Below are positions 33,524-59,624 of a stretch of 64,000 bases of DNA, in pieces. The notes under the pieces were generated by a model. It worked only from the letters and a program-made list of their open reading frames with translations. It did not search any database and was not told the DNA's origin. The DNA is from Nitrospirota bacterium (GTDB lineage Bacteria; Nitrospirota; Thermodesulfovibrionia; Thermodesulfovibrionales; JdFR-86): assembly GCA_037386965.1 (NCBI GenBank), contig JARRLN010000002.1, positions 11,443 through 75,442 of the forward strand. Direction: 5' to 3'. Every line of letters starts with the position of its first letter. Position 1 is the first letter of the stretch. The position numbers and the translations under genes are program-made.

Positions 33524-33524
33524 C

Positions 33525-37082: not shown

Positions 37083-37097
37083 GCGTTCAGGCGCTCG

Positions 37098-40360: not shown

Positions 40361-40365
40361 AATTC

Positions 40366-40890
40366 CTATACGGGCACCTTCTTCGAAATGCCTACCTTGT
40401 AGCGGACCCACTCGACCAGGAGAGTATGATTCTCGACCTTGTGGGGCATGGTGTCCAGGGGTCGCGGCGCCGGGCCGGCCAGCACGCGGCCGTCCTTGGC
40501 ATAAACGCTGCCGTGGCAGGGGCACTCGAAGTGTCCGGTCTTGGGGTCCCACTTGTAGTAGCACCCCATGTGGGGACAGATGGGCGAGAACGTGGTCACG
40601 CCCTCGGGATGCTTTATCACCCACACCCTGTGCTCGACCACCTCATGGTAGTACGCTTTCTTCTCCCGCACGTCGAAGTGCAGGTCCATTGGCTGGCCCA
40701 CGGGCAGGTTTTGAAGGTCGGTCACCTTCTCGAAGGGGTTCTTCTCGGCGGGCGGAGAGGTAAAAAGGTTCTTGACGAAAGGGACCCCCAGGAGAAGGCC
40801 GTTCAGGGCCCCCAGGGCTCCGAGGGTCCACTTGAGAAACCGCCTCCGCCCTTTCGGCACGTCCCGTTCTTCCGTCCTTGCAGGCTCCAT
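40366..40890 (-). CDS. Rieske 2Fe-2S subunit of a cytochrome bc-type complex (Tat signal)
   Basis: RRRFLKWTLGALGAL twin-arginine signal; CPHMGC ... CPCHGS Rieske boxes. ATG 40890 inside ORF 40366..40980. Confidence 0.85.
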   Translation of the reverse strand: MEPARTEERDVPKGRRRFLKWTLGALGALNGLLLGVPFVKNLFTSPPAEKNPFEKVTDLQNLPVGQPMDLHFDVREKKAYYHEVVEHRVWVIKHPEGVTTFSPICPHMGCYYKWDPKTGHFECPCHGSVYAKDGRVLAGPAPRPLDTMPHKVENHTLLVEWVRYKVGISKKVPV

Positions 40891-43858: not shown

Positions 43859-45739
43859 TCAGAGGACGCTCAGCGCCTGGTCCGCGGCGCGCCGCCCCTC
43901 CTGCGTGGCGGCCACCCAGTGCTGGTGGCCGTTCAAATCGGCGTGGCCGAAGGAGATGCGCCCGAAGGGCTCCCGGATGACCTCCGGGGGCGCGGGACGG
44001 TCCCCCGTCCCGAAGTAGAAACCCGGCTGAGGGACTACGTACCCATAGAGCCAGCGGTTCAGGATGATGCCGGCAACGTCGGTCTCCGGGTTGAACCCCG
44101 CGGGGCCGAAGAGCCGGCTGAGGTGCGAGAGGATGCGCTCCTCGTACCGGGCGTAGCTCGTCTCCAGGAGCTCCTTTCTTCCCCGCTCCACCTGCTCCGC
44201 GACGGGGAGCCCGGGCCGCTGGAAGGAAACATAGAAGGTGAGCACGATGGGCTTGTCGGGGTGAAGCGGGGGACTGTACTCGCCCACCACCATGGGCCGC
44301 CTGATATTGCAGGAGAAGCCGAACCCCTCGAACCAGCGGCAGGCGGTGTAGCCCAAGTGGTAGAGAAATCGCCAGTTGGTCAGCGCCACGTTGACGATGA
44401 GCATGGGGGCGAAGGTCATCTGCGCGAAGGCGTCCCGATGCCCCGCGGGAAGCCCCTGCACTATCCTCCTGGCGCTGTAGCTTCCCGTGGCCGCCACCAC
44501 CGCCCCGGCCTTCAGGCGGAAGGCCTTCCCGTCCCTGAGATAGGTGACCAGGACATGCTCGGACTTCGCCGGGTCCCCCTCGTGCTGCACGCGGAGCACC
44601 GAGGCCCCGGCCCGGAAGCGCACGCGGTTGTCCGGCTTGTCAAGGGCCGCCCAGCGCACGGGGCGGTTCTGTATGTCCTCAAACTTTTTCTTCCCTTCGA
44701 TGGCCTCGGGGATGAGGGCCTTGATGAAGAAACGGGAGAACCCGTCGTTGCCCCCGGGGAAGGAGTCCCAGTGGTTCGTCTTGAGGCTCCTGTGCCCCCT
44801 GAAATTGGGGAAACCGGGCATGTAAACCTGGTGGGCGGCGTATGCCGATATGACGTCGCACCCCAGCCCCACGGTGCTGGCCAGTATGGGATGGGCGAAG
44901 CGGGGAACCTCCGGGGAAAGGCCCATGACCTTTTGCAGGTACTGCTCATAGGTCATGCCGTCGAGCCACCGCTCGTAGTGCTCTCCCGTGTAGAAGCGCT
45001 CCTTGGAGTTTCTCCACCTGAGGAAGTCCCGGCGGACCGCCTCGGGATAGGGAGTGCCCTTGAAGGCGTTCTCCCAGATGCCGCCCACCCAGTGCCCGGT
45101 CCCCCGGCCCTGGCCGCCGAAGAAATACCCGATGCTCTTCGAGGTAAACCATATCCTGTAGCCGAAGTTGGTCCTGTCGAAATCCAGGTCCTTTCCCCGC
45201 ACCTGCAGGTCCTGGTACGTGAAGTGCCGCGGGACGCCTAGCTCGTCGTATATCTCGTAGCCGGGGATTCCCGGCGTAAGGACGCCAAAGGAGTTCGACC
45301 CCTGGGGGGCAATGAGGCGCACGCCGTTTACGACGAACTCGTTGCGCTTGGCCACCCCTCCGAAGATGGGGTGGTTCTCCAGGATGAGGCACCGCGCCCC
45401 CCGGGGCGCCTTTTTCTTGAACTCATGGGCGGCGGAAAGTCCCGAGAGCCCTCCGCCGGCAATCACGAGGTCGAAGGCCTCGCCGGTGTCCACCAGGTCG
45501 GCGGAGGAGGAAGGGGCCGCACCCTTGGTGATGGCCTCCAGCACCTGCATCACCTGCCGCGTGTTGCCGTGAGAGGTGGCATAATCCCCGAGGCCCCCAC
45601 ACCCCGTCCGGGGAAGCACGGCCGCCAGGAGCCTCCCCGGGGCCGGCAGGCGCAGAAGCGAGGCCCCCGTGCCCAGGAGGACCGCGTTCAGGAAATCCCG
45701 CCGGGTGATGCCCGCTTTCGCCTTGCGCGTCCGCTTCAT
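43859..45739 (-). CDS. Tat-exported NAD(P)/FAD-dependent oxidoreductase (amine/spermidine-dehydrogenase-like)
   Basis: MKRTRKAKAGITRRDFLNAVLLGTGA Tat signal; FDLVIAGGGLSGLSAA dinucleotide fold. ATG 45739 has RBS GGGAGGAG. The ORF-track start at 45856 is unsupported. Confidence 0.65.
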   Translation of the reverse strand: MKRTRKAKAGITRRDFLNAVLLGTGASLLRLPAPGRLLAAVLPRTGCGGLGDYATSHGNTRQVMQVLEAITKGAAPSSSADLVDTGEAFDLVIAGGGLSGLSAAHEFKKKAPRGARCLILENHPIFGGVAKRNEFVVNGVRLIAPQGSNSFGVLTPGIPGYEIYDELGVPRHFTYQDLQVRGKDLDFDRTNFGYRIWFTSKSIGYFFGGQGRGTGHWVGGIWENAFKGTPYPEAVRRDFLRWRNSKERFYTGEHYERWLDGMTYEQYLQKVMGLSPEVPRFAHPILASTVGLGCDVISAYAAHQVYMPGFPNFRGHRSLKTNHWDSFPGGNDGFSRFFIKALIPEAIEGKKKFEDIQNRPVRWAALDKPDNRVRFRAGASVLRVQHEGDPAKSEHVLVTYLRDGKAFRLKAGAVVAATGSYSARRIVQGLPAGHRDAFAQMTFAPMLIVNVALTNWRFLYHLGYTACRWFEGFGFSCNIRRPMVVGEYSPPLHPDKPIVLTFYVSFQRPGLPVAEQVERGRKELLETSYARYEERILSHLSRLFGPAGFNPETDVAGIILNRWLYGYVVPQPGFYFGTGDRPAPPEVIREPFGRISFGHADLNGHQHWVAATQEGRRAADQALSVL

Positions 45740-45852
45740 CGCTCCTCCCATGATAGTACAAGGTTCGCTCTTTGTGAAGAGCCGAGGCGGGACGGGTTCG
45801 GGTGTCCGAGCGGCGGGTGTGAGAGGCCGGTCCGCGCAGTGCCCGAGGGGCC

Positions 45853-46521
45853 TCAATTGTCGGGCGAGTCCAGCCTTATGATGCCCTTCTGGATGGCGAA
45901 CTTGATGAGCTCGGCGCGCGAGTGGGTGTTCAACTTCTCGGCGATGTGCGTGTGATGGGTGACCACGGTCTTCACGCTGATGTCCAGGAAGCTCGCTATC
46001 TCCTTGTAGCTCTTCCCCTCGGCGATGAGCTTGATGATCTCCCGCTCCCTCAGGGTTATCTTCTCCAGGGGGTCTTCCACCTTCGGAGGCCCCTTGCCCA
46101 GGTAGCCGTCCACCACCGCGGAGGCGATGGAAGGCGAAAGATAGAACCCGCCGTCCCTGACCCCGCGGATGGCGTTGATGAGCTCCCCGCCCACGGCCTT
46201 CTTCAGGATGTACCCCGAAACGCCGGCCTTGAGGAACCGCGAGACGTACTCCTTGTCGTCGTACTGGCTCAGGACCAGCACCCGCACCCCGGGGTGCTTC
46301 TTGAGTATCTCGGCCGTGGCCTCCAGGCCCCCGATGCCGGGCATGGCGATGTCCATGACCACCACGTCGGGGAAAAGCTCGTTGACCTTCTCGATGGCCT
46401 CCTTGCCGTCGGCGGCCTCGCCCACGACCTCCACGTCCTCGTACATGCTCAGGATGAGGGCGATGCCCTCCCGCACCATGGCATGGTCGTCAACGATGAC
46501 TATCCGGGTCCGTCTGTCCAT
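45853..46521 (-). CDS. Response regulator, NarL/FixJ (LuxR-type HTH) family
   Basis: Receiver domain (IVIVDDH...VVVMDIAMPG) plus a C-terminal LuxR HTH (LTLREREIIKLIAEGKSYKEIA). Confidence 0.9.
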   Translation of the reverse strand: MDRRTRIVIVDDHAMVREGIALILSMYEDVEVVGEAADGKEAIEKVNELFPDVVVMDIAMPGIGGLEATAEILKKHPGVRVLVLSQYDDKEYVSRFLKAGVSGYILKKAVGGELINAIRGVRDGGFYLSPSIASAVVDGYLGKGPPKVEDPLEKITLREREIIKLIAEGKSYKEIASFLDISVKTVVTHHTHIAEKLNTHSRAELIKFAIQKGIIRLDSPDN

Positions 46522-48361
46522 TGCCTCCCCGCAGAAACTCCAGCGGAATGTTCACCCGTATGCGCGTGCCCCGCCCTCCCTCGAGGTACCGGGAGCGCAG
46601 GCACATCCTGCCTCCCAGAAGCAGCACCCGCTCCTTCATGCCCAGAAGGCCGTAGCCCTCCGAACCGCCGGACCTGTAGACGAGCTCCTCGTCAAAGCCC
46701 ACCCCGTCGTCCTCGACGTTGATGACCAGGTCGGCGTCCTCCCTGAAAAGGTCGACCTCCACCCGGGTGGCCCCGGCGTGCCTGTCTATGTTGATGATGG
46801 CCTCCTGCACGATGCGGAAGACCATGAGCTGGCTCCTCTCGTCCATGTCGAAGGCCCCGCTTTCGGCAAAGTCGCCGGAGGAGCGCAAGGTATAGGGAAT
46901 GCCCTTTGTCCCGAGGCTCCTGTCCAGCATCCAGCGGATGGCGGACTCAAGCCCCAGGTCGTCCAGCACCGGCGGCCTCAGGTCCTTTATCACGCGCTTG
47001 ATGCCGTCCAGGAGCTGCTCCACCCGGGTAATCTGGTGGCGGAGCATATCCGGGGTGAGCTTGCCTTCCTCCAGGGACAGCAGGGCCATCTCCAGAGACA
47101 TCCCCAGGGCGGTGACCGTCTGGCTGGTCTCGTCGTGCAGCTCCCGGGCGATGCGCTTCCTCTCCTCCTCCTGTGTCACCATGGACTGCCTGAGGAGGCT
47201 GGCGAGCTGCTTCCTCCTCTTCATGAGCTCCCGGGTGCGCTCCTCCACGCGCCTTTCCAGCTCGTCGCTGTGTTGCCGGAGCCTGTCCAGGGAGTCCTTC
47301 AGCCGGAGCCGCATGCGCTCCACGCTGCCGGCCAGGGCGCCTATCTCGTCATCGCTTCTCACCTCAACCGGCTCATCCAGGTTGCCCCGTCCTATCCTGC
47401 GGGCCGCCCCGGTCAGCGCCTGGACCGGCCGCACGATGCTCCGGCTCAGGCCCACCGCCAGGAGCACGCCCGTAAACAGATAGACCACGCTCAGGATTCC
47501 CAGTATCCTGTGAAGCCTGCTCAGGTTGGCGTAGACCACCGACTGGGGCTCCCTGACCGATATGCCCCAGGGGGCCAGCCCCAGCGAGGCGAAGGCAAGG
47601 ACGTCCTCGGTGCGCCCCTCGCTTTGGCCCTGGGCTCCCTCGTGGCAGCGGTGGCAGCGGGTCACCGTGGAGGCGCCTTTCTCGATGAGGTTTCTCAGGT
47701 AGAGGTTATGGTCCACGCCGGTCAGTATGCGCGTGGGGTCGTTGCTCGAGATGATCATGCCGTGGCTGTCTATGAGCTCGATGCAGGTGCCCTCGGTGGA
47801 GGGCGTGGAGCCGATGATACGGGTAAACATGTAGCTTGCGGGGTTTATCTCCCCGCCGGCCAGCCCGATGAGACTGCCGGAGTGGTCCTTGAGGGGGACC
47901 AGGCCGAAAATGACCTTCTTGCCCGTGGTCTGGAGGGTGTAGACGTCGGATATGAGCGGCCTCTGCTCCGCCATGGCCCTGTTGACGTACGGGATGCTCA
48001 GAAGGTTGGTGCCGGAAGCGAACCTGTGGGGGTAGGACAGGACGATGTTTCCCTGCAGGTCCAGGAGGAACACGCCGTCGGTGAAGATGGAGTACTCGTA
48101 GGCGCGCCTGAGGGCCCTTCTCTCGGGCGCCCAGTCGCCGTCGTCCAGGTCGACGCTCCCGCTCAGGGAAATGTCCTGAAGCCTCGTGAGGTTGCGCTCC
48201 AGGACGTACTCCACGTCCTTGCCCAGGATGGTGGTCAGCATGAGGCGGCTTTGCATGAAGGAGTGGATGATATTGTTCGCTATGAGGTGGCTTATGACCC
48301 CGAGGCTCACCTGTATGACGGCCAAGCTGACAAGGATGAAAAAAAGTATCCTCTTCTGCAT
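46490..48361 (-). CDS. Sensor histidine kinase (Cache-like periplasmic domain containing CxxCH, HAMP, HisKA_3, HATPase)
   Basis: Two TM segments flank a roughly 250-aa periplasmic domain. CHRCH at codons 236-240. H-box ELHDETSQ. C-terminal GYGLLGMKERV. Confidence 0.85.
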   Translation of the reverse strand: MQKRILFFILVSLAVIQVSLGVISHLIANNIIHSFMQSRLMLTTILGKDVEYVLERNLTRLQDISLSGSVDLDDGDWAPERRALRRAYEYSIFTDGVFLLDLQGNIVLSYPHRFASGTNLLSIPYVNRAMAEQRPLISDVYTLQTTGKKVIFGLVPLKDHSGSLIGLAGGEINPASYMFTRIIGSTPSTEGTCIELIDSHGMIISSNDPTRILTGVDHNLYLRNLIEKGASTVTRCHRCHEGAQGQSEGRTEDVLAFASLGLAPWGISVREPQSVVYANLSRLHRILGILSVVYLFTGVLLAVGLSRSIVRPVQALTGAARRIGRGNLDEPVEVRSDDEIGALAGSVERMRLRLKDSLDRLRQHSDELERRVEERTRELMKRRKQLASLLRQSMVTQEEERKRIARELHDETSQTVTALGMSLEMALLSLEEGKLTPDMLRHQITRVEQLLDGIKRVIKDLRPPVLDDLGLESAIRWMLDRSLGTKGIPYTLRSSGDFAESGAFDMDERSQLMVFRIVQEAIINIDRHAGATRVEVDLFREDADLVINVEDDGVGFDEELVYRSGGSEGYGLLGMKERVLLLGGRMCLRSRYLEGGRGTRIRVNIPLEFLRGGNGQTDPDSHR

Positions 48362-48415
48362 CCCATGGCCGCCGGCCCTGATCGGCCGCCGGCCTGCACC
48401 TCCTGGATACTTTTA

Positions 48416-48437
48416 TTATAAACCTATGTGTTTATAA
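48416..48437. promoter_or_regulatory. Operator-like palindrome TTATAAAC-N6-GTTTATAA overlapping a perfect minus-strand TATAAT (48420..48415)
   Basis: 8-bp perfect inverted repeat in the only AT-rich stretch between the cytochrome b gene and the histidine kinase gene. Confidence 0.35.
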
Positions 48438-48463
48438 AATCTATAAATTCCCGCTTGAGAGGA

Positions 48464-49180
48464 TTATACGAACCCCTCCCCTTCCCCGGCCGGGACGTCC
48501 TCCTCCCGCCCTTGAAGGGCGTCGAGCTCCAGGGGATGCTCCCGCCGCATGCGCTCCCTTGAAATGTAGCCCGTAAAGATGCTCTTGTCCAGGGGGAAGA
48601 CGTCGGGGCTGAAAATGGAGTTGTATCCGTGCCAGACCGCAACGAGGATGAAAATGAGCATGGCCGCGTTGCTGTGCAGGGCCTTGGCCACGGGTATGCC
48701 CTCTCCGGGCAGATAGTGGGTTGCCTGGATGGGGAACCAGAGCACAAATCCCGTCGCTATCATGACCACCGCCATGGTGACGATACCCCAGTACTCCAGC
48801 TTCTGCTGGTAGGTGTAGCGCCCGCAGCGGGCGGGCCTGTCCTCGGCGCCCACATAATATTTTATGTTCTGCACCGCGTCGCGGAAGTCCTTCCTGCTGA
48901 TGAGCATGGTGGGCTCCCACCTGAAGAGCGAAAGCCCCAGGGCTGCCGCCAGCACATGCACCGCCATCAGGGCGGCGTAGGAGGCCCCCACGTACCTGTG
49001 GATGAGCCTCACGTAATCTATGCCTCCCAGGGATTCGACGACCCACCGCGAGGCCTCCACGTAGTAAAACCTCTGCGCAAGCCCTGTCACCACGAGCACG
49101 ATGATGGCCACCATGTGCACCCAGTGCTCGCCCACCCGGTAGGGGCTGAACCTCCGCACCTTGTCTCCCCTGGTCTGCAT
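48464..49180 (-). CDS. Membrane dihaem cytochrome b, FdnI/HydC (PF01292-like) family
   Basis: MQTRGDKVRRFSPYRVGEHWVHMVAI..., four TM with conserved His (HWVH, LIHRY, ALHSN, VWHGY). ATG 49180 has RBS AAGGAGG. Confidence 0.75.
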   Translation of the reverse strand: MQTRGDKVRRFSPYRVGEHWVHMVAIIVLVVTGLAQRFYYVEASRWVVESLGGIDYVRLIHRYVGASYAALMAVHVLAAALGLSLFRWEPTMLISRKDFRDAVQNIKYYVGAEDRPARCGRYTYQQKLEYWGIVTMAVVMIATGFVLWFPIQATHYLPGEGIPVAKALHSNAAMLIFILVAVWHGYNSIFSPDVFPLDKSIFTGYISRERMRREHPLELDALQGREEDVPAGEGEGFV

Positions 49181-49190
49181 GGGCACCTCC

Positions 49191-50609
49191 TTATCGGTTC
49201 GAGACCACCCGCCACAGGTGAAGCAGTATCTGCAAGACAAGGCCGACCACCAGGACGGGAAGGAATATCTTGAAGGCCAGGTTCACGAGATAGACCCCGG
49301 GCGCATGGGAGAGGCTCGGCACGTAATGCGAGAGCCAGGCATCGGGGAAATCGCTGGTCGCTCCGGAGTGGCACTGCCGGCAGCTTTTCACCAGCCGCTC
49401 CTTCAGGACATTGGCGTCCGGCCCCGTGGTGCTGGTTATGTCGTGGTAGCCATGGCAGTCGGTGCAGACGGCCACCGGCCGCGAGGGCCCCTTCTGCTCC
49501 CTGTAAAAGGACAGCGTGACCCCGTGGAAGTCCGAGAGATAGGTCTTCAGGACCTCCGTGGAAAGGCCGTATTTCTTCACCACCGCGGGGTCGGCGTGGC
49601 AGTTGCTGCACATGTCGGGGACCTTCTCGTGCTCGGGCTTGTTGACGCTGTGTATCTGGTGGCAGTCCATGCAGACCGGCACGTCGGTGTTCTGCTCGTT
49701 GAAAAGCGCCGCGCCGTGCACGCTCCGGGCATAGGTCTTAAAGGTCTTCGGGTGGCAGCCCCGGCATTTCCAGGCGCTGGACACCCTGTCCCGTGCCGCA
49801 TGCCGCACCGCGTGGGAGCCGTGGCAGTCCACGCACACCGGGGACCCCAGCTTCCCTTCGCAGAGAGTGACGTAATGTATGCTCTTCAGGGTCTTCGCGT
49901 ATTTGTCGAAGTGGCACCTCCGGCAGGTCTCGGAGTTCGCTATGGTGAAATCCCTCCCGGAGGTGAAGCTTCGCTCCGGGTGGCTTTCGGCCGAGAAGCC
50001 GAAATGGCAGTCCGAGCACGAGAGGTTGCCGTGCACGGAGCCGTGGATGTCCTCAAGGCTCACCTCGAGGGAGACCGTCTGGGCGCCCACGGCCAGGGAC
50101 ATGTCCTTGTCGTGGCAGCCCATGCAGTACTGCTCCTCGCTTTCGAATTTCCTCCCCTGGGCCACCACCGTGATGCCATGGGCCCCGTGGCAGTCGGAGC
50201 AGAGGACCGGCTCGCCCGCCTCCTTTTCCCGGGCGATGAGGAGAGCGTGGGCGGGACTCTTCCGCAGCTCTTCTGCGGGATGGCACCGCCGGCAGACGCG
50301 GAGCGTCCGCGTCCTGAAGAGCCGCTCGCTCCTGAAGCTCCTGCGAGGGTGCACGCCCGGCCCGAAACCCTCGTGGCAGCCGCTGCAGCCCAGCTCGCGG
50401 TGCACCGATTTCCGGAAATCCTCGGCGCTGACGTGGGCCTCGCGCCTCCCGCCGTCGCCGAAGGTCATGACTATGCCCCGTTTCCCGTGGCACTGGAGGC
50501 AGCCCGTGACTTCCCTGGAGAGGTCGGCTGCCCGGGCCTCCGGGGCGAGAAACCCCAGAAGGGCCCCCTCTAAGAAAAGAAAAAACCCTATCCATGCGAA
50601 TGGCCCCAT
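49191..50609 (-). CDS. Multihaem cytochrome c, 13 CxxCH motifs, signal peptide and C-terminal TM anchor
   Basis: CxxCH motifs, in order: CLQCH, CSGCH, CRRCH, CSDCH, CMGCH, CSDCH, CRRCH, CVDCH, CRGCH, CMDCH, CSNCH, CTDCH, CRQCH. ATG 50609 inside ORF 49191..51443. Confidence 0.85.
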   Translation of the reverse strand: MGPFAWIGFFLFLEGALLGFLAPEARAADLSREVTGCLQCHGKRGIVMTFGDGGRREAHVSAEDFRKSVHRELGCSGCHEGFGPGVHPRRSFRSERLFRTRTLRVCRRCHPAEELRKSPAHALLIAREKEAGEPVLCSDCHGAHGITVVAQGRKFESEEQYCMGCHDKDMSLAVGAQTVSLEVSLEDIHGSVHGNLSCSDCHFGFSAESHPERSFTSGRDFTIANSETCRRCHFDKYAKTLKSIHYVTLCEGKLGSPVCVDCHGSHAVRHAARDRVSSAWKCRGCHPKTFKTYARSVHGAALFNEQNTDVPVCMDCHQIHSVNKPEHEKVPDMCSNCHADPAVVKKYGLSTEVLKTYLSDFHGVTLSFYREQKGPSRPVAVCTDCHGYHDITSTTGPDANVLKERLVKSCRQCHSGATSDFPDAWLSHYVPSLSHAPGVYLVNLAFKIFLPVLVVGLVLQILLHLWRVVSNR

Positions 50610-50728
50610 GGTCACCTTCCCCGGAATAACCCCCGGGGCCTCGGCGAGGCCCCGGGGGGCTTTCTCGTGGAGCCAGCAGGCCTCCCCCGGAGAAGCTTCG
50701 CGTGTCCTATCCTCCGGAGGAGCGGCAT

Positions 50729-51973
50729 TCAGTGGGCCTCCTTGTACTCCGGCTCTTCCCGGACGACGGGCATCCGGTTGACTATCCAGCGGAATATCAG
50801 TATGTGCAGCGTCAGCAGCGCACCCACGATGGCGACCTCCGTCCAGGGGGGCACGATGTGCTCGATATGGTGGGGCAGGTTCCAGTTGAAGGCAACGATG
50901 GAGACATTCAGCCGGTTGACGAGGATGCCCATGACGGCCCAGAAGGCCCCGAACCGCACCGCCAGGGCGCTTGCGGCCTTTACGCCGTAGGTCAGCACCA
51001 GGGCCGGTGCGAGGACGAACCCCAGTATCTCCAGGAGATACCAGTAGCCGTACGGCGTCAAAAGCGCGCCCCAGAGGTCCGCATGGGCCACGGCCACCAG
51101 CTTCATGGCGAAGTAGACATACATGGCCGCGACGGCGCCCTTGCCGAGCCCCAGGGTCAGCCTGTCCAGGTTGCCCCGGTAGGTCTCGTCCGTCGCACCC
51201 CTCAGATACCTGGCCACCAGGGTGCTGACCGCGATGACCATCGCGAGGGCGGCGTAGACACTGGATATCAGGAACAGTTGCGGGATGTAGGAGCTGTACC
51301 ACAGCGGGTGCAGCTTGCCCGGCGCAAGCAGGAACATCGCCCCCAGAGCCGACTGGTGCAGCGTGGAGAGGATGATGCCCGCGATGGTCATGGCTATGGT
51401 AATCCTGACCGCCCAGAGGCGGACCCTCCTGGCCCTGAGCCACTCAAGGATGGTGGTGCTGAACTCAAGGAACTGCACGGTCAGGTAGGTGGCGACATGC
51501 CAGGCCACCAGGAAAAGGACCGAGGCGGTGCCGAACTGCACCACCATGGGATAGTAGATGCGCCACGGCCTTCCCAGGTCCACCAGGAGGTACAGGACGG
51601 CGAACAGGTATCCCATGAACCCCGTCAGCACCCCCAGCCGCACCAGAGGCTTGTAGGCCTTGAACCCGAAAATGTAATACATGGTGGCCATGACGAAGCC
51701 CGTGGCCGAGAGGGGCACCCCTCCGAAGAGGCCCCATCCCAGCAGCAGCCCCCACGGGTACTCGTACGATGCGTGGGTCACGCTCTCCAGGCCGAAGAGG
51801 AACCGCACGGCGATGACCGGGAGGCCCACGGCCAGGACAGCGCCGGCCACGACGTTGAACGGCGTCACCAGGGAGCGCATGTACTCCGGCCAGGACATCC
51901 CCATGAGGAGCTTGCCCATGAACCAGGAGCGAAAGTCAGTCTTCTTCAGGGCGTATTCGGCCTCACCGTTCAT
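50729..51973 (-). CDS. NrfD/PsrC/HmcC-family integral membrane quinone-interacting subunit
   Basis: 414 aa, about 10 TM. The start overlaps the FeS-subunit stop (ATGA). Confidence 0.8.
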   Translation of the reverse strand: MNGEAEYALKKTDFRSWFMGKLLMGMSWPEYMRSLVTPFNVVAGAVLAVGLPVIAVRFLFGLESVTHASYEYPWGLLLGWGLFGGVPLSATGFVMATMYYIFGFKAYKPLVRLGVLTGFMGYLFAVLYLLVDLGRPWRIYYPMVVQFGTASVLFLVAWHVATYLTVQFLEFSTTILEWLRARRVRLWAVRITIAMTIAGIILSTLHQSALGAMFLLAPGKLHPLWYSSYIPQLFLISSVYAALAMVIAVSTLVARYLRGATDETYRGNLDRLTLGLGKGAVAAMYVYFAMKLVAVAHADLWGALLTPYGYWYLLEILGFVLAPALVLTYGVKAASALAVRFGAFWAVMGILVNRLNVSIVAFNWNLPHHIEHIVPPWTEVAIVGALLTLHILIFRWIVNRMPVVREEPEYKEAH

Positions 51974-52944
51974 TTTCTCACCTCCTCGCTGCCGGCCCCT
52001 TCCTTCTCCGTCTCGTGGTTCTCACGGTGGCGGACGGCGGCATACAGCATCCCGAAGAAGGCCGGCCATATCACGAAGACCGAGGGCACGGCCGCGAGGA
52101 ACCCCTTGGCGTAGGAAATGGGAGGTTGCATCGGGACGTCCTTCGGAAATCCGACCTGTTCGAAGGGAACGGGGGACAGGTACAGCCAGTTCAGGCCGCC
52201 GGCCTCTTTTTCTCCGTATATGTGGTCGACGTACGTATCCGGGCTCCGGAGAATTCTCTGCCGGGCCAGCTTCAGAAGGTCGTCGCGCCTGCCGAAGGTC
52301 ACCGCCCCCATGGGGCAGGCCGCCGCGCAGGCGGGCTTGAGCCCGTCCCTTATCCGGCCCAGGCACATTATGCACTTTTCCACCTTCGGCTCTAGGGCGC
52401 TCTCGTAATCATATGTGGGCACGTAGAAGGGGCAGGCGATCATGCAGTAGCGGCAGCCGAAGCAGAGGTCCTCGTTGTAGTGGACCGGACCCTCCGGGGT
52501 TTTGGTGTACGCATGAATGGGGCAGGCCGAGGCGCAGGCCGGCTCCATGCAGTGGTTGCACTGTATCTTTCTGTAAACAACCTTTCCCCCGGGCGTCTCG
52601 TAGCGGTTGACCACGGTATAGACCCCGGGGGTGGTCCTCCTCTCCTCGTCGAACACCGACGAGTCGGTGAAGGGCGTCTCGGGCTCCGGCAGGTCGTTGG
52701 CCTCGTTGCAGGCCTTCTCGCAGCTCCGGCAGCCCACGCAGAGGCTCAGGTCGGTGAGCATGCCGTAGCTTCCGGGGTAGCCGGTGAAGTTCTCCGAGCC
52801 CCCGGCCTTCTTCGGGTGTCCCAGAACGGCCGTTCCTCCGGCCAGGGCCATGGAGCCCAGGAAGGCCCGCCTGCTGAGGCCCCGGGAGCGGCCCTTTCCC
52901 TTGTCTTTCTTCATCCTTTTCTTTTCATCTGGTGTTTTTCCCAT
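51970..52944 (-). CDS. Tat-exported 4x[4Fe-4S] ferredoxin-like subunit (HybA/HmcB/PsrB-like) with C-terminal TM
   Basis: RSRGLSRRAFLGSMALAGG Tat signal. Clusters CVGCRSCEKAC, CNHCMEPACASACP, CFGCRYCMIACP and CIMC...CAAACP. Confidence 0.85.
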   Translation of the reverse strand: MGKTPDEKKRMKKDKGKGRSRGLSRRAFLGSMALAGGTAVLGHPKKAGGSENFTGYPGSYGMLTDLSLCVGCRSCEKACNEANDLPEPETPFTDSSVFDEERRTTPGVYTVVNRYETPGGKVVYRKIQCNHCMEPACASACPIHAYTKTPEGPVHYNEDLCFGCRYCMIACPFYVPTYDYESALEPKVEKCIMCLGRIRDGLKPACAAACPMGAVTFGRRDDLLKLARQRILRSPDTYVDHIYGEKEAGGLNWLYLSPVPFEQVGFPKDVPMQPPISYAKGFLAAVPSVFVIWPAFFGMLYAAVRHRENHETEKEGAGSEEVRK

Positions 52945-52963
52945 GAAACACCTCCGGCCTCCT

Positions 52964-53404
52964 CTACCGATGGGTACGGTTGTGGCACGTAAGGGCGCAG
53001 TTCTCGGGGGCTCCCAGCACGCCCATGTCCCGGTGACACGAGAAGCAAGCCCGGTGGTAGGCCACCTTCAGGGAAGGGACCTCCACCGACGCGCCCCCGG
53101 CCTTCCCGTGGCAGCTTCCACAGGGGAGGAAGGCCGCCTTGGCCGTCTGCCTGAACTGCTCCGGGGCAACGTCATGGCAGCCGTTGCAGGTGGATGCGGC
53201 CGTGGGGTGCGTGTGGTGGCACTTTGCGCACTCGCCGGCCAACATGACGTGCATGGGGTGGTCGAACCGCACCGCCTGATACCTGTCCACCAGGCTGTCC
53301 AGCACGATGGCCCCGGGGGGAGGTCCCCCCTGCCCGGCCCGGGCGAGCCAGGCGGGCAGGAGAACAACAGCCGCCAGAAACACTGTAGCCGTCATCTTCG
53401 CCAT
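52964..53404 (-). CDS. Small periplasmic multihaem cytochrome c (c3/c7-like; 4 CxxCH plus 1 CxxxCH)
   Basis: CAKCH, CNGCH, CGSCH, CFSCH and CALTCH. ATG 53404 with RBS AAGGAGG, inside ORF 52964..53449. Confidence 0.8.
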   Translation of the reverse strand: MAKMTATVFLAAVVLLPAWLARAGQGGPPPGAIVLDSLVDRYQAVRFDHPMHVMLAGECAKCHHTHPTAASTCNGCHDVAPEQFRQTAKAAFLPCGSCHGKAGGASVEVPSLKVAYHRACFSCHRDMGVLGAPENCALTCHNRTHR

Positions 53405-53414
53405 GGGACCCTCC

Positions 53415-53813
53415 TTAGCTCTCCCGTCCGCCCTTGCCCTCGCGGGCATTCTTCTTGCGGCCGGTGAAGTACGCCTCCACGGGGCTCCACCCGTAGGACG
53501 AGCCCGCGCCCAGGAGCCTGCCCAGGCCGTTGACGACCGCGATGGCGATGGCGGCGACGAAGGTCAGGGGCAGAAGGGTCACGTACAAAAGACCGATGAA
53601 GGGTGCGGACACCATCCGTCCGACGCTCCTCATGGTCTCCCGGTACCCGGTGGACCTGATGTACTGCGCATCCTCCCGGGTGGCCTGGGCCAGGCCCTGG
53701 AACGGACGCGGCTTGAGGAGTTCCCAGAGGAGAATAAACCCGGCTATTGCGCTGATGGCCAGGATATACTCCACCGCCTTGACGTGGGTGAGGAAATCAA
53801 ACAGGGTGTTCAT
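53415..53813 (-). CDS. Small 2-TM membrane protein, uncharacterised family (paralogue A)
   Basis: 132 aa with a GGAGG RBS. The C-terminal motif P-F-I-G-L-L-Y-V-x-L-L-P ... W-x3-EAY-F-T-GRKK is shared with 53904..54269. Confidence 0.6.
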   Translation of the reverse strand: MNTLFDFLTHVKAVEYILAISAIAGFILLWELLKPRPFQGLAQATREDAQYIRSTGYRETMRSVGRMVSAPFIGLLYVTLLPLTFVAAIAIAVVNGLGRLLGAGSSYGWSPVEAYFTGRKKNAREGKGGRES

Positions 53814-53903
53814 CGCTTCCTCCTTTCCCTTTGCTGGGGGACAGGACCTCCGGTAAGCACTCCCGCCTCGGCCGGAGCCCTGTCCCGGGTTTTTTCCCGC
53901 TGT

Positions 53904-54269
53904 TTATTCATCCTTCTTCGACTCCTTCTTCCTTTTCTTTTTCTTCCTGCCCGAAAGGTACGCCTCCGAGGTCCTCCAGTCGAAAGAGAAGCTCCTTCCC
54001 GCGAGGCCGGCCAAGCCCTTGACCGCATGCGCAGCGGCCAGGGATGCCACCGTTGCGATGGCCAGGAAGGGAAGGACAATCACGTACGCAAGCCCCACAA
54101 TCGGCCCCACCAGAAGCAGCAGGACCGTGGGGACCCTGTAGTACGTGGTATCCTCGCCGCCGGGAAGCATGCCGTCCTCACGCAGGTCCTGCCAGCGGCC
54201 GTTGGAGAAATCCCAGTACGTGCCTTTCTTCACCTTATGGCCTCCTTTGTACCGGAGCATCGTCATCAC
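53904..54269 (-). CDS. Small membrane protein, uncharacterised family (paralogue B) with a poly-Lys tail
   Basis: 121 aa; P-I-V-G-L-A-Y-V-I-V-L-P ... W-x3-EAY-L-S-GRKKKKRKKESKKDE. Confidence 0.55.
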   Translation of the reverse strand: MMTMLRYKGGHKVKKGTYWDFSNGRWQDLREDGMLPGGEDTTYYRVPTVLLLLVGPIVGLAYVIVLPFLAIATVASLAAAHAVKGLAGLAGRSFSFDWRTSEAYLSGRKKKKRKKESKKDE

Positions 54270-54402
54270 CTCCTTTCCCTGATTCCATTTTCACCAATGC
54301 GGAGGGGCGATGTATATCGGAAGAAGTTCGTACAACGGAGGGAAAAAAATCCGAGAGAACAAGGAAAAAATCAGTAAATTCGAGGCAATGGAAGGAAAGG
54401 GC

Positions 54403-54933
54403 TCAGTCCACCATGCTCGAGGCCATCCGGATGAGCTCGAAGGGGGGTCCGGCCATGACCAGCCGAAAGGTGTAGCCCCCCTCCTTCCAGGAAAGGCTGC
54501 TGCAGGTGCCGCCGGAGGCGCAATCGCCCACCCTGAGCGTGGCCCTCCGGCCCTTGAGGTCGTAGGGGACCTCCTCGCGCACCCTCTGGAGCCTGATGGC
54601 CTCGACATCCAGGGGATGCCCGCCCTCGGCCACCTGGGTGAGGAGCAGGCCTATCTTGCCGGTGTCCGCCTCGGCGAACTCCATGGCCACCGCCACGAAG
54701 GGCTCGCCCTGGGCCAGGATGCGGGCGGGCGGCCAGCGGAAGCTCTCCGGGAAGTAGGAAGGCACGTGAAGGTCCTCCAGGTGAAGCGAGGTGCGCACGG
54801 CCTCCAGGCTCTCGTACCGCCGCAGGCTCTCCTCGTGCAGGAGCACGGGCAGCCAGTTCATGAGCCTCAGGAGCGCAACGACCAGGGCGACCAGCACGAG
54901 GAAGGCGAAAAACCCTGTCACGGCCTTTTTCAT
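54403..54933 (-). CDS. Membrane-anchored hypothetical protein
   Basis: MKKAVTGFFAFLVLVALVVALL anchor; RBS GGAGGG before ATG 54933. Begins 11 nt after the M56 peptidase gene stop. Confidence 0.55.
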   Translation of the reverse strand: MKKAVTGFFAFLVLVALVVALLRLMNWLPVLLHEESLRRYESLEAVRTSLHLEDLHVPSYFPESFRWPPARILAQGEPFVAVAMEFAEADTGKIGLLLTQVAEGGHPLDVEAIRLQRVREEVPYDLKGRRATLRVGDCASGGTCSSLSWKEGGYTFRLVMAGPPFELIRMASSMVD

Positions 54934-54944
54934 CGACCCTCCGC

Positions 54945-55943
54945 TTAAACGATAAAGTAGCACACGGCGCCCGCCGCCGCCAGCGTGAGCACCACCTGCG
55001 CCCAACTCCCTTCCCCGCGAGGATTGCCGGCCGCCTCCTCCCCCCGCAGGCGGGCAATCCGTTCCCTGAGGACCGCAGCGTGCGTCATGTGGCTCACGTT
55101 GGCCCCGATTGTGCCATCCTCGGACAGGGGCGTTTCCTCCTCCCGGAGGAACGCCTCCAGCGTGGAGGCCAGGGCGCCGGGGTTCCCGGTCATCCGGACG
55201 GCCTCGTCGTCGCAGACCTTCTCCTCGTCCTCCACCATTTTCCGGAACTCCAGGAGCACAACGGGATTGAAGAACATGAGGACCCGGAAAACGAAGGCCA
55301 CAAGAAGCAGGGGCCGCCTGCTCCTTGCTATGTGGGCCGTCTCATGGGCGACGGCGGCCTGCAGCTCCTCCCTGGAGAGGCTCTCCACGAGGCCGGTGGA
55401 TACAAAGACGGCGGGCTTTCTCCCCGTGGACGAGAAAAGCACGAGGTCCTCGTCATCGATGACTTCCATCTCCGGGGCCGGGAAGGGAAGACCCGCCAGG
55501 GCCGCCTCCAGGCCGGCGTCGTCCCCGGCCTCCTCGCCCGCCTCCCCTTCCCCGCCGCCCCGGCCCGTCTTGAGGGCGCCCCTCAGGACGGGCACAAGCT
55601 CCTGGAAGGCGAAGAGGGCGACGGTGCCCAAAAGAAGGAGGACGAAGAGGACGCCGAGGGGAAAAAGCCCCCAGGGCTCAAGGTCCAGCCACCGCCGGGT
55701 GTCCAGGAGCGCCCCCAGCCTGAACGAAAGGGAGCCCCGCGCCGGGTTCAGGAGCTGGTAAAGCGGGTAGGAGAAGACCGGAAACAGGATGGCCACCAGG
55801 CGCAGCCTCAGCTGCCAGGCCGGGCTCCTCGTCCCCCACGCCCCGATGGAGCTTTCCACCAGAAGCGCGGCCACAAGCGAGTGCACGAAAGCCTGCACAA
55901 TGTAGGAGCCTATGGCGGTATCGAAAAAATAGGAAATATCCAT
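54945..55943 (-). CDS. M56 (BlaR1-like) family membrane metallopeptidase, no adjacent BlaI-type repressor
   Basis: Polytopic N-terminus, HExxH as AVAHETAHIARSRR, C-terminal TM. Confidence 0.65.
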   Translation of the reverse strand: MDISYFFDTAIGSYIVQAFVHSLVAALLVESSIGAWGTRSPAWQLRLRLVAILFPVFSYPLYQLLNPARGSLSFRLGALLDTRRWLDLEPWGLFPLGVLFVLLLLGTVALFAFQELVPVLRGALKTGRGGGEGEAGEEAGDDAGLEAALAGLPFPAPEMEVIDDEDLVLFSSTGRKPAVFVSTGLVESLSREELQAAVAHETAHIARSRRPLLLVAFVFRVLMFFNPVVLLEFRKMVEDEEKVCDDEAVRMTGNPGALASTLEAFLREEETPLSEDGTIGANVSHMTHAAVLRERIARLRGEEAAGNPRGEGSWAQVVLTLAAAGAVCYFIV

Positions 55944-56143
55944 TCCACGGGTCTCAACTGCGAGGGACGGGACCGCGCACCCCCCGGCCGGGACCGTTTA
56001 ATAATAGCAGATAACCGGCGCGGGGAAGAAGAAAGGACGGCCGCGGGAAAGCGCAAAGCCCGATGCCGGCGTTATGGAGAAGCCCCCGGAACACCCCGGC
56101 CCGGGATGATACAATAAGACAAAGGGGGCCTTGAGAGTACCCG

Positions 56144-56578
56144 ATGGCATATCGAGTGGCGAGGGAGAGGTTCGAAGCCCTGGTGGAGGAGGCCCTCCGG
56201 AGCCTCCCCGAAGAGTTCAAGCGGCATTTCGAAAACATCATCGTGGAGGTCAGCGATTACCCCACCCGGGAAGAAGCGCGGCGTGCGGGTGTCCCGCGGG
56301 AGGGGCTTCTGGGGCTTTTCGAGGGCGTTCCCCATCCCCACCGGGGAGGCTTCTTCGACCTGCCTCCCGTCCTCCCCGCCAGAGTGGTCCTCTATCAGAA
56401 GAACATCGAGGCGTTCTCCCAGAGCGAGGAGGAGCTTGTGCAGGAGGTCCGCTGGACCCTCATGCACGAGGTGGGACATTACTTCGGTCTCACCGAGGAG
56501 GAGGCTCATTGCGCGGTGCGCTTCTCGCTCGGCGTGGACAACGACGAGGGCAGGGGCTCGAGAGGGGGCACGCGGTGA
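56144..56578 (+). CDS. Small zincin-like metallopeptidase-family protein (PF06262/DUF1025-like)
   Basis: ENIIVEVSDYP ... VVLYQKNIE ... TLMHEVGHYFGLTEEE. Confidence 0.65.
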   Translation: MAYRVARERFEALVEEALRSLPEEFKRHFENIIVEVSDYPTREEARRAGVPREGLLGLFEGVPHPHRGGFFDLPPVLPARVVLYQKNIEAFSQSEEELVQEVRWTLMHEVGHYFGLTEEEAHCAVRFSLGVDNDEGRGSRGGTR

Positions 56579-57212: not shown

Positions 57213-58031
57213 TCAGGGGCGCCGCTCCTGAGAGAGGGACAGGATGTAGTTGACGAGGTCCCAGAGGTCCCTCTCGTTTCCCTCGAAGAAGGCTTCATAC
57301 GAAGGCATCGGGGAGCCGTTCATGCCCGTCACCAGGGTCCTGTAGATATCCTCCGGGCGGTCGCCGTTTTTGAACGAAGCCGGCCTGGTCAGGTCCGCCG
57401 GGGCTATGAGGAATCCCCAGTCGTCCCTGAGCGTGGGCGCCGAACCGCCGTCTCCCCGCCCCCCGCCGCCGTGGCACGCGAAGCACTGCAATTTCTGGTA
57501 GACCTGGTATCCCCTCTGGGCGCTGGCGGGCGTCATGGGCTTGGGATATCCCACAATCGGGACAGGTTGTGGATTCGCGTTTTCAAAGCCCGGGAAGAAA
57601 CCTTTGACAAAGTAAATGATTTTCCAGCGGTCGGCCACGCCGAGCCCCGTGAAGGGAGGCATGAATCCCCGCACGCCAGCCGTCACCGTCCGAAACAGGT
57701 CTTCGTCCGTCGGGAGCTCTCCGCTCGGCGTGGACCGGAACTTGAACACCCCGTCGGCAAAGACGCGCGGGCGAGGGGCGAAATCCCGCGCGAGGTAGAC
57801 CGCAGCCGGGCCGTCGCCCTCTCCCTTGACCCCGTGGCACAGGGCGCAGGACCTGTCATACATGGCCTTGCCTTGGGCGCGCGTGGTTTCGTTTACGGGC
57901 GGCCTCTTCGAATACTGCGCCACCGGAATCGGCAGCTCCTGGGCTGCCTCCGTGCGGCCCGGAACCGCCAACAGGACGGAAAGCCCCGCCAAGGCTGCCG
58001 TAAGAATGGAAATGAGCTTTGTCCGTATCAT
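57213..58031 (-). CDS. Periplasmic dihaem cytochrome c, paralogous to the CcoP-like half of the fused CcoO-CcoP
   Basis: Signal peptide. CALCHGVKGEGDG and CFACHGGGGRGDG. FKFRSTPSGELPTDEDLFRTVTAGVRG matches FKFRSTPTGSLPLDTDLYRTITIGVRG at 8318..9658. Confidence 0.85.
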   Translation of the reverse strand: MIRTKLISILTAALAGLSVLLAVPGRTEAAQELPIPVAQYSKRPPVNETTRAQGKAMYDRSCALCHGVKGEGDGPAAVYLARDFAPRPRVFADGVFKFRSTPSGELPTDEDLFRTVTAGVRGFMPPFTGLGVADRWKIIYFVKGFFPGFENANPQPVPIVGYPKPMTPASAQRGYQVYQKLQCFACHGGGGRGDGGSAPTLRDDWGFLIAPADLTRPASFKNGDRPEDIYRTLVTGMNGSPMPSYEAFFEGNERDLWDLVNYILSLSQERRP

Positions 58032-58044
58032 GGCCTGTCCTCCG

Positions 58045-59535
58045 TTAAAACGCCATGTCGACGCCGACGGACGCGATGTATTGGAGGTTCCTCGCCGGGC
58101 TCTCCGCACTCCCGAGCCCGGGCGGCAGCTTCTTGGAGCCCGCAAGGTTGAAATGAGACCGCGCGTAAAGTCCGATGTTGGGCACCGGGTAGAACTTGGC
58201 CAGCACGCCCAGGAACGAGGCGTCTTGGTTCACCTTCGGCCCCCCCTGCTGAAGCGCGGGCGGCAGCTCCGCGAGGCCGCCGGGGTCCATGAAATCGTAC
58301 CGGGCGCCCAGGAGCCACTGGCGGTTCACCAGCCAGTCGGCCTCCACGCTGAGGCCGAAGGCGTCCTCGTCCCATTTGGAAAGGCTGCCCGGCGCGCCTG
58401 CAAACCGGACGTCGCCTATCCAGTCCCAGATGCCGGTGCCGTAGATGTCCAGGTACTTGTAGTGCCATCTTGCCGCGACGCCGAAGCGGTCCCAGTCCAC
58501 GGGCTCCGCATAGACGAAAGGCCCCGTCGCACTACCCGATGGATTAAGGGTGGGCCGGGCCGCGTCCTGGGCGTGGTAGTAGAACCCGGAGACCTGCACG
58601 TCGGAGAAAGGGCCCACGATGTCGTACCGGAGCATGCCGTAGATATCCCACCGGGTGTCCTGCGAGTCCTCGGCGGTGTCCCCCTGCGCCACGCCCACCT
58701 GGTAGAGGAAGGACGGGCCGAAGGGCCTCCCGTAGACCGTCGCCCCTTTGCTTGCGGGCACGTCGAACAGGAAGGGCTCGAAGGGGAGTATGGCGAACCC
58801 CTCGACCCCCTCCCTTGCCGGTCCGGTGGTCAGCCCGTACATCTTGCTTGAAAACGCGAAGGGAAGCATGGGGATGCGCTTTATTTCCGGGGGAAAAACA
58901 TCGGTCTCCGCATCGGGCGGTATGGGGTCCAGCTGCTGGCGGTGCGTGGGGAACGAGTAAAACGCCGACGGGTCGAAGTTTCCTATCTTGAAATTCGCAA
59001 GCTGGTAGCCGCCCAGGTTGTCGAATACGAGGAATACCCGCTCGAAGCCCAGGCCGCTTCCTTCCTCCTCGGCGTTGAACTCCCCCTCGATGAAGAAGCT
59101 GATGTTCCTGGCCGCCGTGCCGGCAAAGAAGAGGTTTATAATCTTGGGAAACACGACGTCGAAGTCCTCCTGCTTGTCGTCCTCGGTCTCCCTGAACCCG
59201 GCCTTTCTGACCTCGGCGCGCAGCCTCACGGCGGTAAAGTTGGTGACCTGGCCGAGGGTGGCGCCGCCCACGGGGCCGCCCAAAAGCTCCTTGAGCGTTC
59301 TGCCGCCCTCCTCGGTAGCGGGCATCTGGTAGCCGTTTTCCTGGAACCTCTGGCCGAAGGGGTTCAACCTGGGCTCCCGCGTATGGCAGGCGTTGCACGT
59401 CAGGTTGTACTTCCGGCCAAAGGCCGGTATGGCGTCGGCATCCCTCACGTCCAGCAGGCACAGGGACAACGAAAAGGCAGCCAGCAGAGAGGCAAACGCC
59501 ACCCACCCGCAAACCCCGGTGCGTGTCTTTTCCAT
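58045..59535 (-). CDS. Fused monohaem cytochrome c / outer-membrane beta-barrel protein (Cyc2-like architecture)
   Basis: Signal peptide, then FGRKYNLTCNACHTREPRLNPFGQRFQENGY (single CxxCH). About 430 aa of alternating, Gly/aromatic-rich sequence follows, ending ...ASVGVDMAF (terminal Phe). ATG 59535 with RBS GGGAGG. Confidence 0.7.
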   Translation of the reverse strand: MEKTRTGVCGWVAFASLLAAFSLSLCLLDVRDADAIPAFGRKYNLTCNACHTREPRLNPFGQRFQENGYQMPATEEGGRTLKELLGGPVGGATLGQVTNFTAVRLRAEVRKAGFRETEDDKQEDFDVVFPKIINLFFAGTAARNISFFIEGEFNAEEEGSGLGFERVFLVFDNLGGYQLANFKIGNFDPSAFYSFPTHRQQLDPIPPDAETDVFPPEIKRIPMLPFAFSSKMYGLTTGPAREGVEGFAILPFEPFLFDVPASKGATVYGRPFGPSFLYQVGVAQGDTAEDSQDTRWDIYGMLRYDIVGPFSDVQVSGFYYHAQDAARPTLNPSGSATGPFVYAEPVDWDRFGVAARWHYKYLDIYGTGIWDWIGDVRFAGAPGSLSKWDEDAFGLSVEADWLVNRQWLLGARYDFMDPGGLAELPPALQQGGPKVNQDASFLGVLAKFYPVPNIGLYARSHFNLAGSKKLPPGLGSAESPARNLQYIASVGVDMAF

Positions 59536-59624
59536 CGGCAAAACCTCCCGTTATCGGCGGACCAGAGTCCGTTTTCCGTGAAACCCGGGAAAATTCAAGC
59601 ACAGTCCGGCTGCATTTCATTTAC

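Follow-up and report, generated by a model that had tools for sequence, protein, structure and literature searches.

Two adjacent, separable redox modules in a conserved locus of uncultivated Nitrospirota and Deferrimicrobia

Introduction

By which route might the quinone pool of Thermodesulfovibrionales-type Nitrospirota and Deferrimicrobia (MBNT15), bacteria that are abundant in groundwater, sediments and wetlands and of which almost none is cultured, be linked to periplasmic or extracellular partners, and do the genes concerned encode one membrane complex or more? This question is raised by a locus in the metagenome-assembled genome (MAG) of a Nitrospirota bacterium (Thermodesulfovibrionales, JdFR-86), in a stretch of 64,000 nucleotides (nt) of contig JARRLN010000002.1 that we call the window. 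Five linked genes of this locus encode a small multihaem cytochrome (c5), an iron-sulphur protein (FeS), an NrfD-type membrane subunit (NrfD), a 13-haem cytochrome (c13) and a cytochrome b (cytb). A first-pass annotation of the window had described them as a single complex. The locus is a good candidate for the quinone-pool link in these bacteria and is usable as a genomic marker, and c13 has thousands of relatives in metagenomes.

We favour, with somewhat better than even confidence, the reading that two adjacent, co-regulated and separable modules link the menaquinone pool to periplasmic cytochromes and together make up the redox core of a locus that is conserved in uncultivated Thermodesulfovibrionales-type Nitrospirota and in Deferrimicrobia/MBNT15. 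This reading builds on the gene content, conservation and modularity of the locus, on its cofactor motifs and on a natural c13::cytb fusion.

Gene content and conservation of the locus

All five open reading frames (ORFs) were found, on the minus strand:

c5, 52964-53404, minus strand: predicted periplasmic pentahaem cytochrome of the c3 family, 146 amino acids (aa), with a signal peptide, four CxxCH motifs, one CxxxCH motif and a Cytochrom_c3_2 match
FeS, 51970-52944, minus strand: HmcB-like protein predicted to carry four [4Fe-4S] clusters, 324 aa, with the motif SRRAFL, 16 Cys, a Fer4_11 match and a C-terminal transmembrane (TM) helix at residues 281-304
NrfD, 50729-51973, minus strand: HmcC/NhcC-like subunit, predicted to be haem-free and quinone-interacting, 414 aa, PF03916 (E 7.8e-16), no Cys
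c13, 49191-50609, minus strand: cytochrome c of 472 aa with 13 CxxCH motifs, an N-terminal signal peptide and a C-terminal TM helix (436-471)
cytb, 48464-49180, minus strand: predicted dihaem cytochrome b of the FdnI/HydC type, 238 aa, PF01292, four TM helices

The haem-motif counts agreed with the first-pass annotation, as did the twin-arginine translocation (Tat) signal of FeS, and the NrfD-like and FdnI-type assignments were backed by Pfam and NCBIfam. Profile searches, used throughout for family assignment, found Cytochrom_c3_2, Fer4_11, NrfD and Ni_hydr_CYTB each on the expected protein; the Pfam matches of c13 were Cytochrome_C7, Paired_CXXCH and Cytochrom_c3_2. The tight linkage proposed earlier was borne out in part. 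AGGAGG-like, strong ribosome-binding sites precede all five starts, but among the junctions from c5 to cytb (19, -4, 119 and 10 nt) an ATGA overlap is present at FeS/NrfD only.

Relatives of c13 were sought by scanning one genome per species, which gave 173 genomes; locus counts refer to 80 loci fetched out of these and compared with the window proteins by tblastn. The hosts are mostly MAGs of Nitrospirota, Thermodesulfovibrionales or Dissulfurispiraceae, approximately 14 of the loci are labelled Deltaproteobacteria or Deferrimicrobia (MBNT15), and no cultured organism is among the hosts. The protein collection held more than 3000 c13 relatives, and the best 120 of them all have exactly 13 CxxCH motifs.

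The same gene order recurred across the 80 related loci, and the arrangement is far beyond chance. The conserved unit is of eleven genes rather than five (M56-like gene, p200, up121, up132, c5, FeS, NrfD, c13, cytb, histidine kinase and response regulator, in this order), including an HmcD-like small subunit, up132, that had been overlooked. This order was fully intact in 35 loci, and most of the others end at contig ends. The cytb gene lay directly downstream of c13 in 79 loci (median gap 16 nt); the contig of the remaining locus ends first. The c5-FeS-NrfD genes were present in 67 loci and missing in 13, which keep the M56-like gene, p200, a small membrane protein, c13, cytb, the kinase and the regulator. 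Two separable modules follow from these 13 loci, and the five genes can no longer be taken as one obligate complex. In addition, the distant locus L083 has a 9-haem c/b pair preceded by a 64-aa membrane protein, with a kinase and a regulator but no cassette; the helix GLLYVIFLPF is common to this 64-aa protein and up121. Since the 13 loci and L083 keep the c/b unit without the cassette, the core of the locus is c13-cytb with a small partner and the two-component system, and up132-c5-FeS-NrfD is a cassette inserted between up121 and c13.

The remaining four structural companions in the window are the following:

M56-like gene, 54945-55943, minus strand: M56/M48-type membrane metallopeptidase-like protein (Peptidase_M56, E 2.6e-14), with the motif HETAH; first gene of the locus
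p200, 54403-54933, minus strand: predicted periplasmic, N-terminally anchored, beta-rich protein of 176 aa with two invariant Cys
up121, 53904-54269, minus strand: small membrane protein, probable start at 54260 (MLRYKGG...), TM helix GPIVGLAYVIVLPF
up132, 53415-53813, minus strand: small membrane protein with an HmcD-like N-terminal TM helix and a C-terminal half paralogous to up121

An M56 homologue in the same position and on the same strand was found in 55 loci. The p200 gene was conserved in 57 loci and was aligned across 40 sequences; it had no Pfam or NCBIfam match, its homologue search returned only three proteins, and its AlphaFold2 model (predicted local distance difference test score, pLDDT, 69; shallow alignment) gave no significant Foldseek match. 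The up121 and up132 proteins are paralogous (33% identity, E 1e-8), and up121 ends in the tail F.W...EAYL.G+KKK. As up121 stays directly upstream of c13 in most of the cassette-less loci, it appears to be the partner of the c13-cytb module, while up132 lies 10 nt from c5. The constant respiratory association gives a handle on all four of these conserved, uncharacterised proteins.

Some loci deviate from the common order. The small paralogues are swapped (up132 before up121) in L002, L038, L068 and two more; L009 and L043 have an inverted kinase and regulator, and L066 and L085 have neither gene. Three complete loci (L027, L055 and L036) are in MAGs labelled Actinomycetota or Candidatus Limnocylindria. 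Their identities are typical of the Deferrimicrobia-type clade, which suggests mis-binning or horizontal transfer.

The c13-cytb module

The cytb protein aligned over its full length with E. coli FdnI (PDB 1kqf_C, E 3.5e-12), and its His19 (TM1), His61 (TM2), His169 and His184 (both TM4) aligned with the four FdnI haem ligands. Each of these four His was at least 95% conserved in 79 sequences. In the periplasmic part of c13, 13 proximal and 13 further His are invariant, which is the pattern of haems that are all bis-His, and another invariant residue, His464, lies in the C-terminal anchor helix.

In the window c13 and cytb are two genes, c then b, 10 nt apart, and not one polypeptide. An exhaustive cytb search (149 representative clusters at E < 1e-30) showed that many of its relatives are fusions. 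P0125, of 717 aa, joins a c13 part (46% identity, 13 CxxCH) to a cytb part (42% identity); it has 24 cluster members on many contigs, and its context (M56-p200-small proteins-c5-FeS-NrfD) is of the same locus type. The existence of this fusion suggests that c13 and cytb form a physical unit. In P0126 and P0127 a 9-haem c part is fused to b; they share 44% identity with cytb and 36% with the final ~300 residues of c13, and their relatives belong to Planctomycetota and other phyla. Fused relatives of the pair are known with 9, 13 and 15 haems. Within c13, the haem motifs form an internal 4+4+5 repeat (CS.CH..F....HP.R.F at 75-92 and 198-215; CRRCH at 106 and 229), which suggests that c13 grew from a 9-haem core when a four-haem unit was duplicated in tandem.

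The c5-FeS-NrfD cassette

FeS matched the HmcB model NF045715 over its full length with 401.5 bits (cutoff 420), the next-best model being HybA (221 bits). The best match of NrfD was the HmcC model NF045714, again over the full length, with 400.9 bits (cutoff 550), followed by HybB (172 bits). c5 matched the C-terminal region of HmcA (E 5.7e-12) and NhcA (1.9e-8), far below the cutoffs, and also the nine-haem cytochrome and TmcA models. The Nhc/Hmc-like character attributed earlier to these three proteins was thereby supported. The 4+1 haem motifs are retained in each of the 45 c5 homologues, together with five further conserved His, and for this reason all five c5 haems are probably bis-His. 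The 16 Cys of FeS are conserved among homologues. A search of PDB sequences with NrfD returned nothing at E < 0.01.

Residues 2-33 of up132 matched HmcD (NF045712) with 24 bits (cutoff 34; E 2.6e-5), and the same model was matched by 24 of 30 up132 family members (best E 4.5e-8); PF28260 (DVU_0533) was found weakly on the up132 homologue of L085. With its HmcD-like N-terminus, up132 would complete c5-FeS-NrfD to an Nhc-type cassette. Genes for HmcE (a NarI-type b) and HmcF (HdrD-like) were not found in the locus, which makes the module more like Nhc than like Hmc.

In L020, an 893-aa ORF that seemed to fuse NrfD to c13 was discarded, as a TGA stop separates the two genes and the fusion is an artefact of ORF extension.

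Comparison with known systems

Every redox subunit of the locus can be placed in a known family by its sequence, and module shuffling is common among such membrane redox complexes. As the first-pass annotation had supposed, no named complex with the same gene set was found in the literature searched. The same literature yielded no case of an Nhc-type cassette joined to a split 13-haem CbcL-type unit, of M56-like, p200, up121 and up132 proteins as companions of respiratory modules, or of a haem-Cache two-component system with such a locus. A paper on the MBNT15 genomes mentions clusters of FeS, membrane-anchor and multihaem proteins only generically.

The c13-cytb pair had been likened to a split CbcL, and this was supported. 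Like CbcL (Cbc1, GSU0274), MtoC and MtrH, it combines a multihaem bis-His cytochrome c with a following HydC/FdnI-type dihaem b and has no FeS, flavin or molybdenum subunit. The published five-His pattern of CbcL (one in the anchor helix, one each in b-TM1 and b-TM2, two in b-TM4) corresponds to His464 of c13 and His19, His61 and His169/184 of cytb. Geobacter CbcL has nine c haems within its N-terminal half, plus a six-helix HydC/FdnI-like b domain in its C-terminal half. The unit described here differs in being split into two genes, in its 13 haems instead of 9, in its small TM protein, in the adjacent haem-Cache kinase and NarL-type regulator, and in the Nhc-type cassette that is usually joined to it. 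A survey of CbcL homologues counted a single Nitrospirae homologue.

The cassette resembles Desulfovibrio Nhc and Hmc in its c3-family cytochrome, its Tat-exported HmcB-like FeS protein with a C-terminal anchor, its HmcC-like NrfD subunit and its HmcD-like TM element. By contrast, c5 has 5 haems instead of 9 (Nhc) or 16 (Hmc), the HmcD-like helix of up132 is fused to an extra domain shared with up121, the gene order is D-A-B-C, and the scores are below the equivalog cutoffs. In Hmc the NrfD-type subunit is accompanied by a NarI-type b whose partner is cytoplasmic, whereas the locus has no HmcE/HmcF and its b is of the FdnI type, with a periplasmic partner. The same distinction holds for DsrMKJOP, which has NrfD-type DsrP, FeS protein DsrO, small cytochrome c DsrJ and dihaem b DsrM in one locus. 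DsrM is of the NarI type and passes electrons to cytoplasmic DsrK; the DsrO model scored only 99 bits (cutoff 200). The pairing of NrfD-type and b-type subunits is thus already present in DsrMKJOP and in Hmc.

Further likenesses are more limited. Geobacter CbcBA (part of Cbc5) places a multihaem c with a C-terminal, His-bearing anchor helix beside a 4-TM dihaem b, in an operon with hypothetical small proteins and a response regulator. By its description it differs from the present locus: CbcA has 7 haems and CbcB three ligand His, control is by sigma-54/BccR, and CbcB was reported to have no sequence homology to CbcL, against 13 haems, a b with all four FdnI-type His and a two-component system of the HisKA_3/NarL type here. 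Identity of the whole set with Cbc5 (cbcEDCBA) was considered and rejected. Cbc5 comprises a 7-haem c (CbcA), a b (CbcB), a 12-haem c (CbcC), a HAMP protein with 2 haems (CbcD) and a membrane protein (CbcE); FeS and NrfD subunits are absent.

The combination of a small multihaem c with a 4x[4Fe-4S] protein and a haem-free NrfD-type subunit also occurs in Cbc4 (CbcSTU) and E. coli NrfBCD, and NrfB is pentahaem like c5. CbcS, however, is a NapC/NirT-type membrane-anchored tetrahaem cytochrome, whereas c5 is of the c3 type with a cleavable-type signal peptide; the NrfC model scored 86 bits (cutoff 378). In formate dehydrogenase-N, the counterpart of cytb, aligned with it over the full length and with all four haem ligands, is FdnI, and FdnH, like c13, transfers electrons in the periplasm and is anchored by a single C-terminal helix (PDB 1KQF). 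FdnG and FdnH are absent from the locus, where a 13-haem cytochrome takes the place of the FeS subunit, and the NCBIfam scores fall far short of the cutoffs.

Regulation

Four elements of the window bear on regulation:

Sensor kinase, 46490-48361, minus strand: dCache-HAMP-HisKA_3-HATPase protein with the c-haem motif CHRCH in its Cache domain
Response regulator, 45853-46521, minus strand: NarL/LuxR-type, Response_reg and GerE domains
Candidate promoter/operator, 54317-54354, minus strand: two degenerate palindrome copies, TCGGATTTTTTTCC and TACGAACTTCTTCC, 22 nt apart, followed by TATACA
Hairpin, 50631-50657, minus strand: perfect 13-bp arms, at the boundary between the modules

The kinase CHRCH lies between two membrane helices, which places the haem motif in the periplasm. 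CxxCH or CxxCK was found at this Cache position in approximately 60 of 66 kinase homologues, and the motif was missing in seven loci, including L040, L054, L059, L071, L080 and L081. Kinases of the Deferrimicrobia/'Deltaproteobacteria' clade have CHRCK (L017, L019, L035, L036, L041, L042, L046, L047, L049, L055, L060 and L075). CxxCK is the Lys-ligated haem motif otherwise known from NrfA. The regulator gene is downstream of the kinase in nearly all evaluable loci.

The candidate operator has the consensus TAGGAA-N4-TTCCTA and was scored as TA[AG]G-N7-TCC over the 220 nt that precede the first small gene. In this region it was 44-fold enriched and present in 30 of 60 loci, with two or more copies in 14 of the 60, often in pairs ~21 nt apart. 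The window copies (54354-54341 and 54332-54319) deviate from the consensus; this loose pattern was not enriched within the window itself, and its support comes from the comparison across species only. We infer that the palindrome is the operator of the regulator and that the redox operon starts at up121. The gap between cytb and the kinase (48362-48463) is unusually AT-rich compared with the 64% G+C of the window and includes TTTATAAT. Kinase and regulator may have a promoter of their own here; a consensus scan made no call in this gap.

The palindrome between NrfD and c13 is exact, as first annotated, with 13-nt arms and one central base. Its folding energy is approximately -38 kcal/mol, and none of 200 shuffles folded as well as the 119-nt gap (z = -3.2). 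Strong hairpins (folding free energy no higher than -20 kcal/mol and an uninterrupted stretch of 9 or more paired bases) were found again at this junction in 21 of 59 loci, compared with 11 of 65 at cytb-kinase, 6 of 41 at up132-c5 and 0-3 at other junctions. The hairpin sequence is not conserved between species, the window hairpin has no U tract on the gene strand, and Rfam gave no family in 45500-56500 at E < 1. The likeliest role is that of a partial terminator or mRNA-stabilising element at the module boundary, one that is not universal.

Proposed function and alternatives

In the proposed mechanism, module 1 (up132, c5, FeS and NrfD) would pass electrons from c5 via the four [4Fe-4S] clusters of FeS, which would be seated on haem-free NrfD, and in module 2 (up121, c13 and cytb) the membrane-anchored c13 would act as a haem wire docked on dihaem cytb. 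In structures of the NrfD family (PsrC, ActC), quinone binds beside the FeS subunit on the periplasmic side, and proton pathways are present; by homology the NrfD quinone site is expected at this face. The quinone site of the FdnI/CbcL-type b is at the cytoplasmic face, and cytb, by homology to FdnI, would carry electrons across the membrane to or from such a site. Sites at opposite faces would give two routes with different coupling under one redox sensor. The kinase with its periplasmic c-haem and the NarL-type regulator probably set expression via the palindrome upstream of up121, and the mRNA levels of the two modules relative to each other are probably tuned by the hairpin between them. 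By analogy with CbcL, for which quinol oxidation with cytoplasmic proton release, low energy yield and operation at low acceptor potential are implied, we infer menaquinol oxidation towards periplasmic or extracellular acceptors. The locus would then hold the NrfD-type solution (periplasmic face) and the FdnI/CbcL-type solution (cytoplasmic face) side by side. In Geobacter the equivalent choice is spread over the separate loci ImcH, CbcL and CbcBA, with the energy yield matched to the acceptor potential.

Several points weigh against two separate modules with this function. The system is known from genes alone, and every host organism is uncultivated. The likeness to CbcL (GSU0274) was judged against its published description; the c13 and cytb homologue lists contained no Geobacter or Dechloromonas sequences, only generically named MAG proteins. 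NrfD and c13 are only 0-25 nt apart in several lineages, the cassette is nested inside the c/b operon (up121 to c13), and each module has one of the paralogous small proteins, which could hold the two modules together. The spacing and the nesting fit a single complex equally. Together with the common strand, the short gaps, the occurrence of both modules in 84% of loci and the NrfD-type/b-type quinone cycling between halves already proposed for DsrMKJOP, these features favour one supercomplex of all seven proteins, in which the cytb and NrfD sites exchange quinone internally (a redox loop or quinone cycle) and up121/up132 bridge the halves. We consider this unlikely. The 13 loci and more distant c/b pairs do without the cassette, which speaks against its necessity; gene fusions that span the modules were not found; a hairpin and an extended gap often lie between the two; and both cytochromes, being all bis-His, are probably of low potential and would leave little driving force for a loop. 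The fullest form of the idea, a seven-product supercomplex joined by up121-up132 pairing that runs a proton-coupled, potential-reversible redox loop from periplasm to periplasm and is reported to the haem kinase, is slightly less likely still.

The direction of electron flow is a further point on which the favoured two-module reading may be questioned. CbcL, MtoC and MtrH relatives occur in Fe(III) reducers and Fe(II) oxidisers alike and do not fix it, and a Cyc2-like gene lies 2 kb away in the window. c13-cytb might accordingly be MtoC-like and reduce menaquinone from extracellular or periplasmic donors, with the Nhc-type module feeding or draining the pool. Desulfovibrio Nhc, described as a cytochrome c3:quinone oxidoreductase, is a quinone reductase, and the candidate Cyc2-like monohaem-porin and a dihaem c are 2-4 kb upstream. 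Against such uptake, the Cyc2-like and dihaem genes are not conserved beside the locus elsewhere, the MBNT15/Deferrimicrobia hosts are predicted iron reducers, and no sequence feature tells the direction; we consider it unlikely as well. Very improbable, in our judgement, is a sensory relay in which c13-cytb reports the redox state of the quinone pool or periplasm to the kinase haem instead of carrying bulk respiratory flux. Even in distant 9-haem relatives the c/b pair is accompanied by a HisKA_3 kinase and a NarL-type regulator, the kinase haem motif is in the periplasmic domain, and a cytb::kinase fusion exists (P0129, 910 aa, 6 cluster members). However, thirteen haems and a full dihaem b far exceed the needs of signalling, autoregulation explains the adjacent two-component system more simply, and L066 and L085 do without it. 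In L086 (2212-8476), two c/b pairs are in tandem (330-aa c, 258-aa b, 377-aa c), and the second b is fused in frame to the Cache-HAMP-HisKA_3 kinase (910 aa, 6 cluster members).

Other genes of the window

The window is a region rich in respiratory genes. Upstream of the locus, the 498-aa product of the gene at 58045-59541 (minus strand) has the look of a fused monohaem cytochrome-porin of the Cyc2 type: it has a signal peptide, carries only one CNACH motif, in its N-terminal part, and ends in ...GVDMAF, as is typical of outer-membrane barrels. The next gene (57213-58145, minus strand) encodes a dihaem cytochrome of the c4/cbb3 type. The genes upstream of the M56-like gene were not conserved with the locus across the 80 loci, and neither was the Tat-exported (TRRDFL) FAD/NAD-binding oxidoreductase (43859-45856, minus strand, ~625-665 aa) directly downstream of the regulator, which has its own promoter-like site at 45778-45750. 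Further away, an 832-aa protein (38126-40624, minus strand) joins cytochrome b/b6 to a dihaem cytochrome c, and a run of NADH dehydrogenase (nuo) genes at ~23000-37100 has a fused NuoC/D and a NuoG-like subunit among its products.

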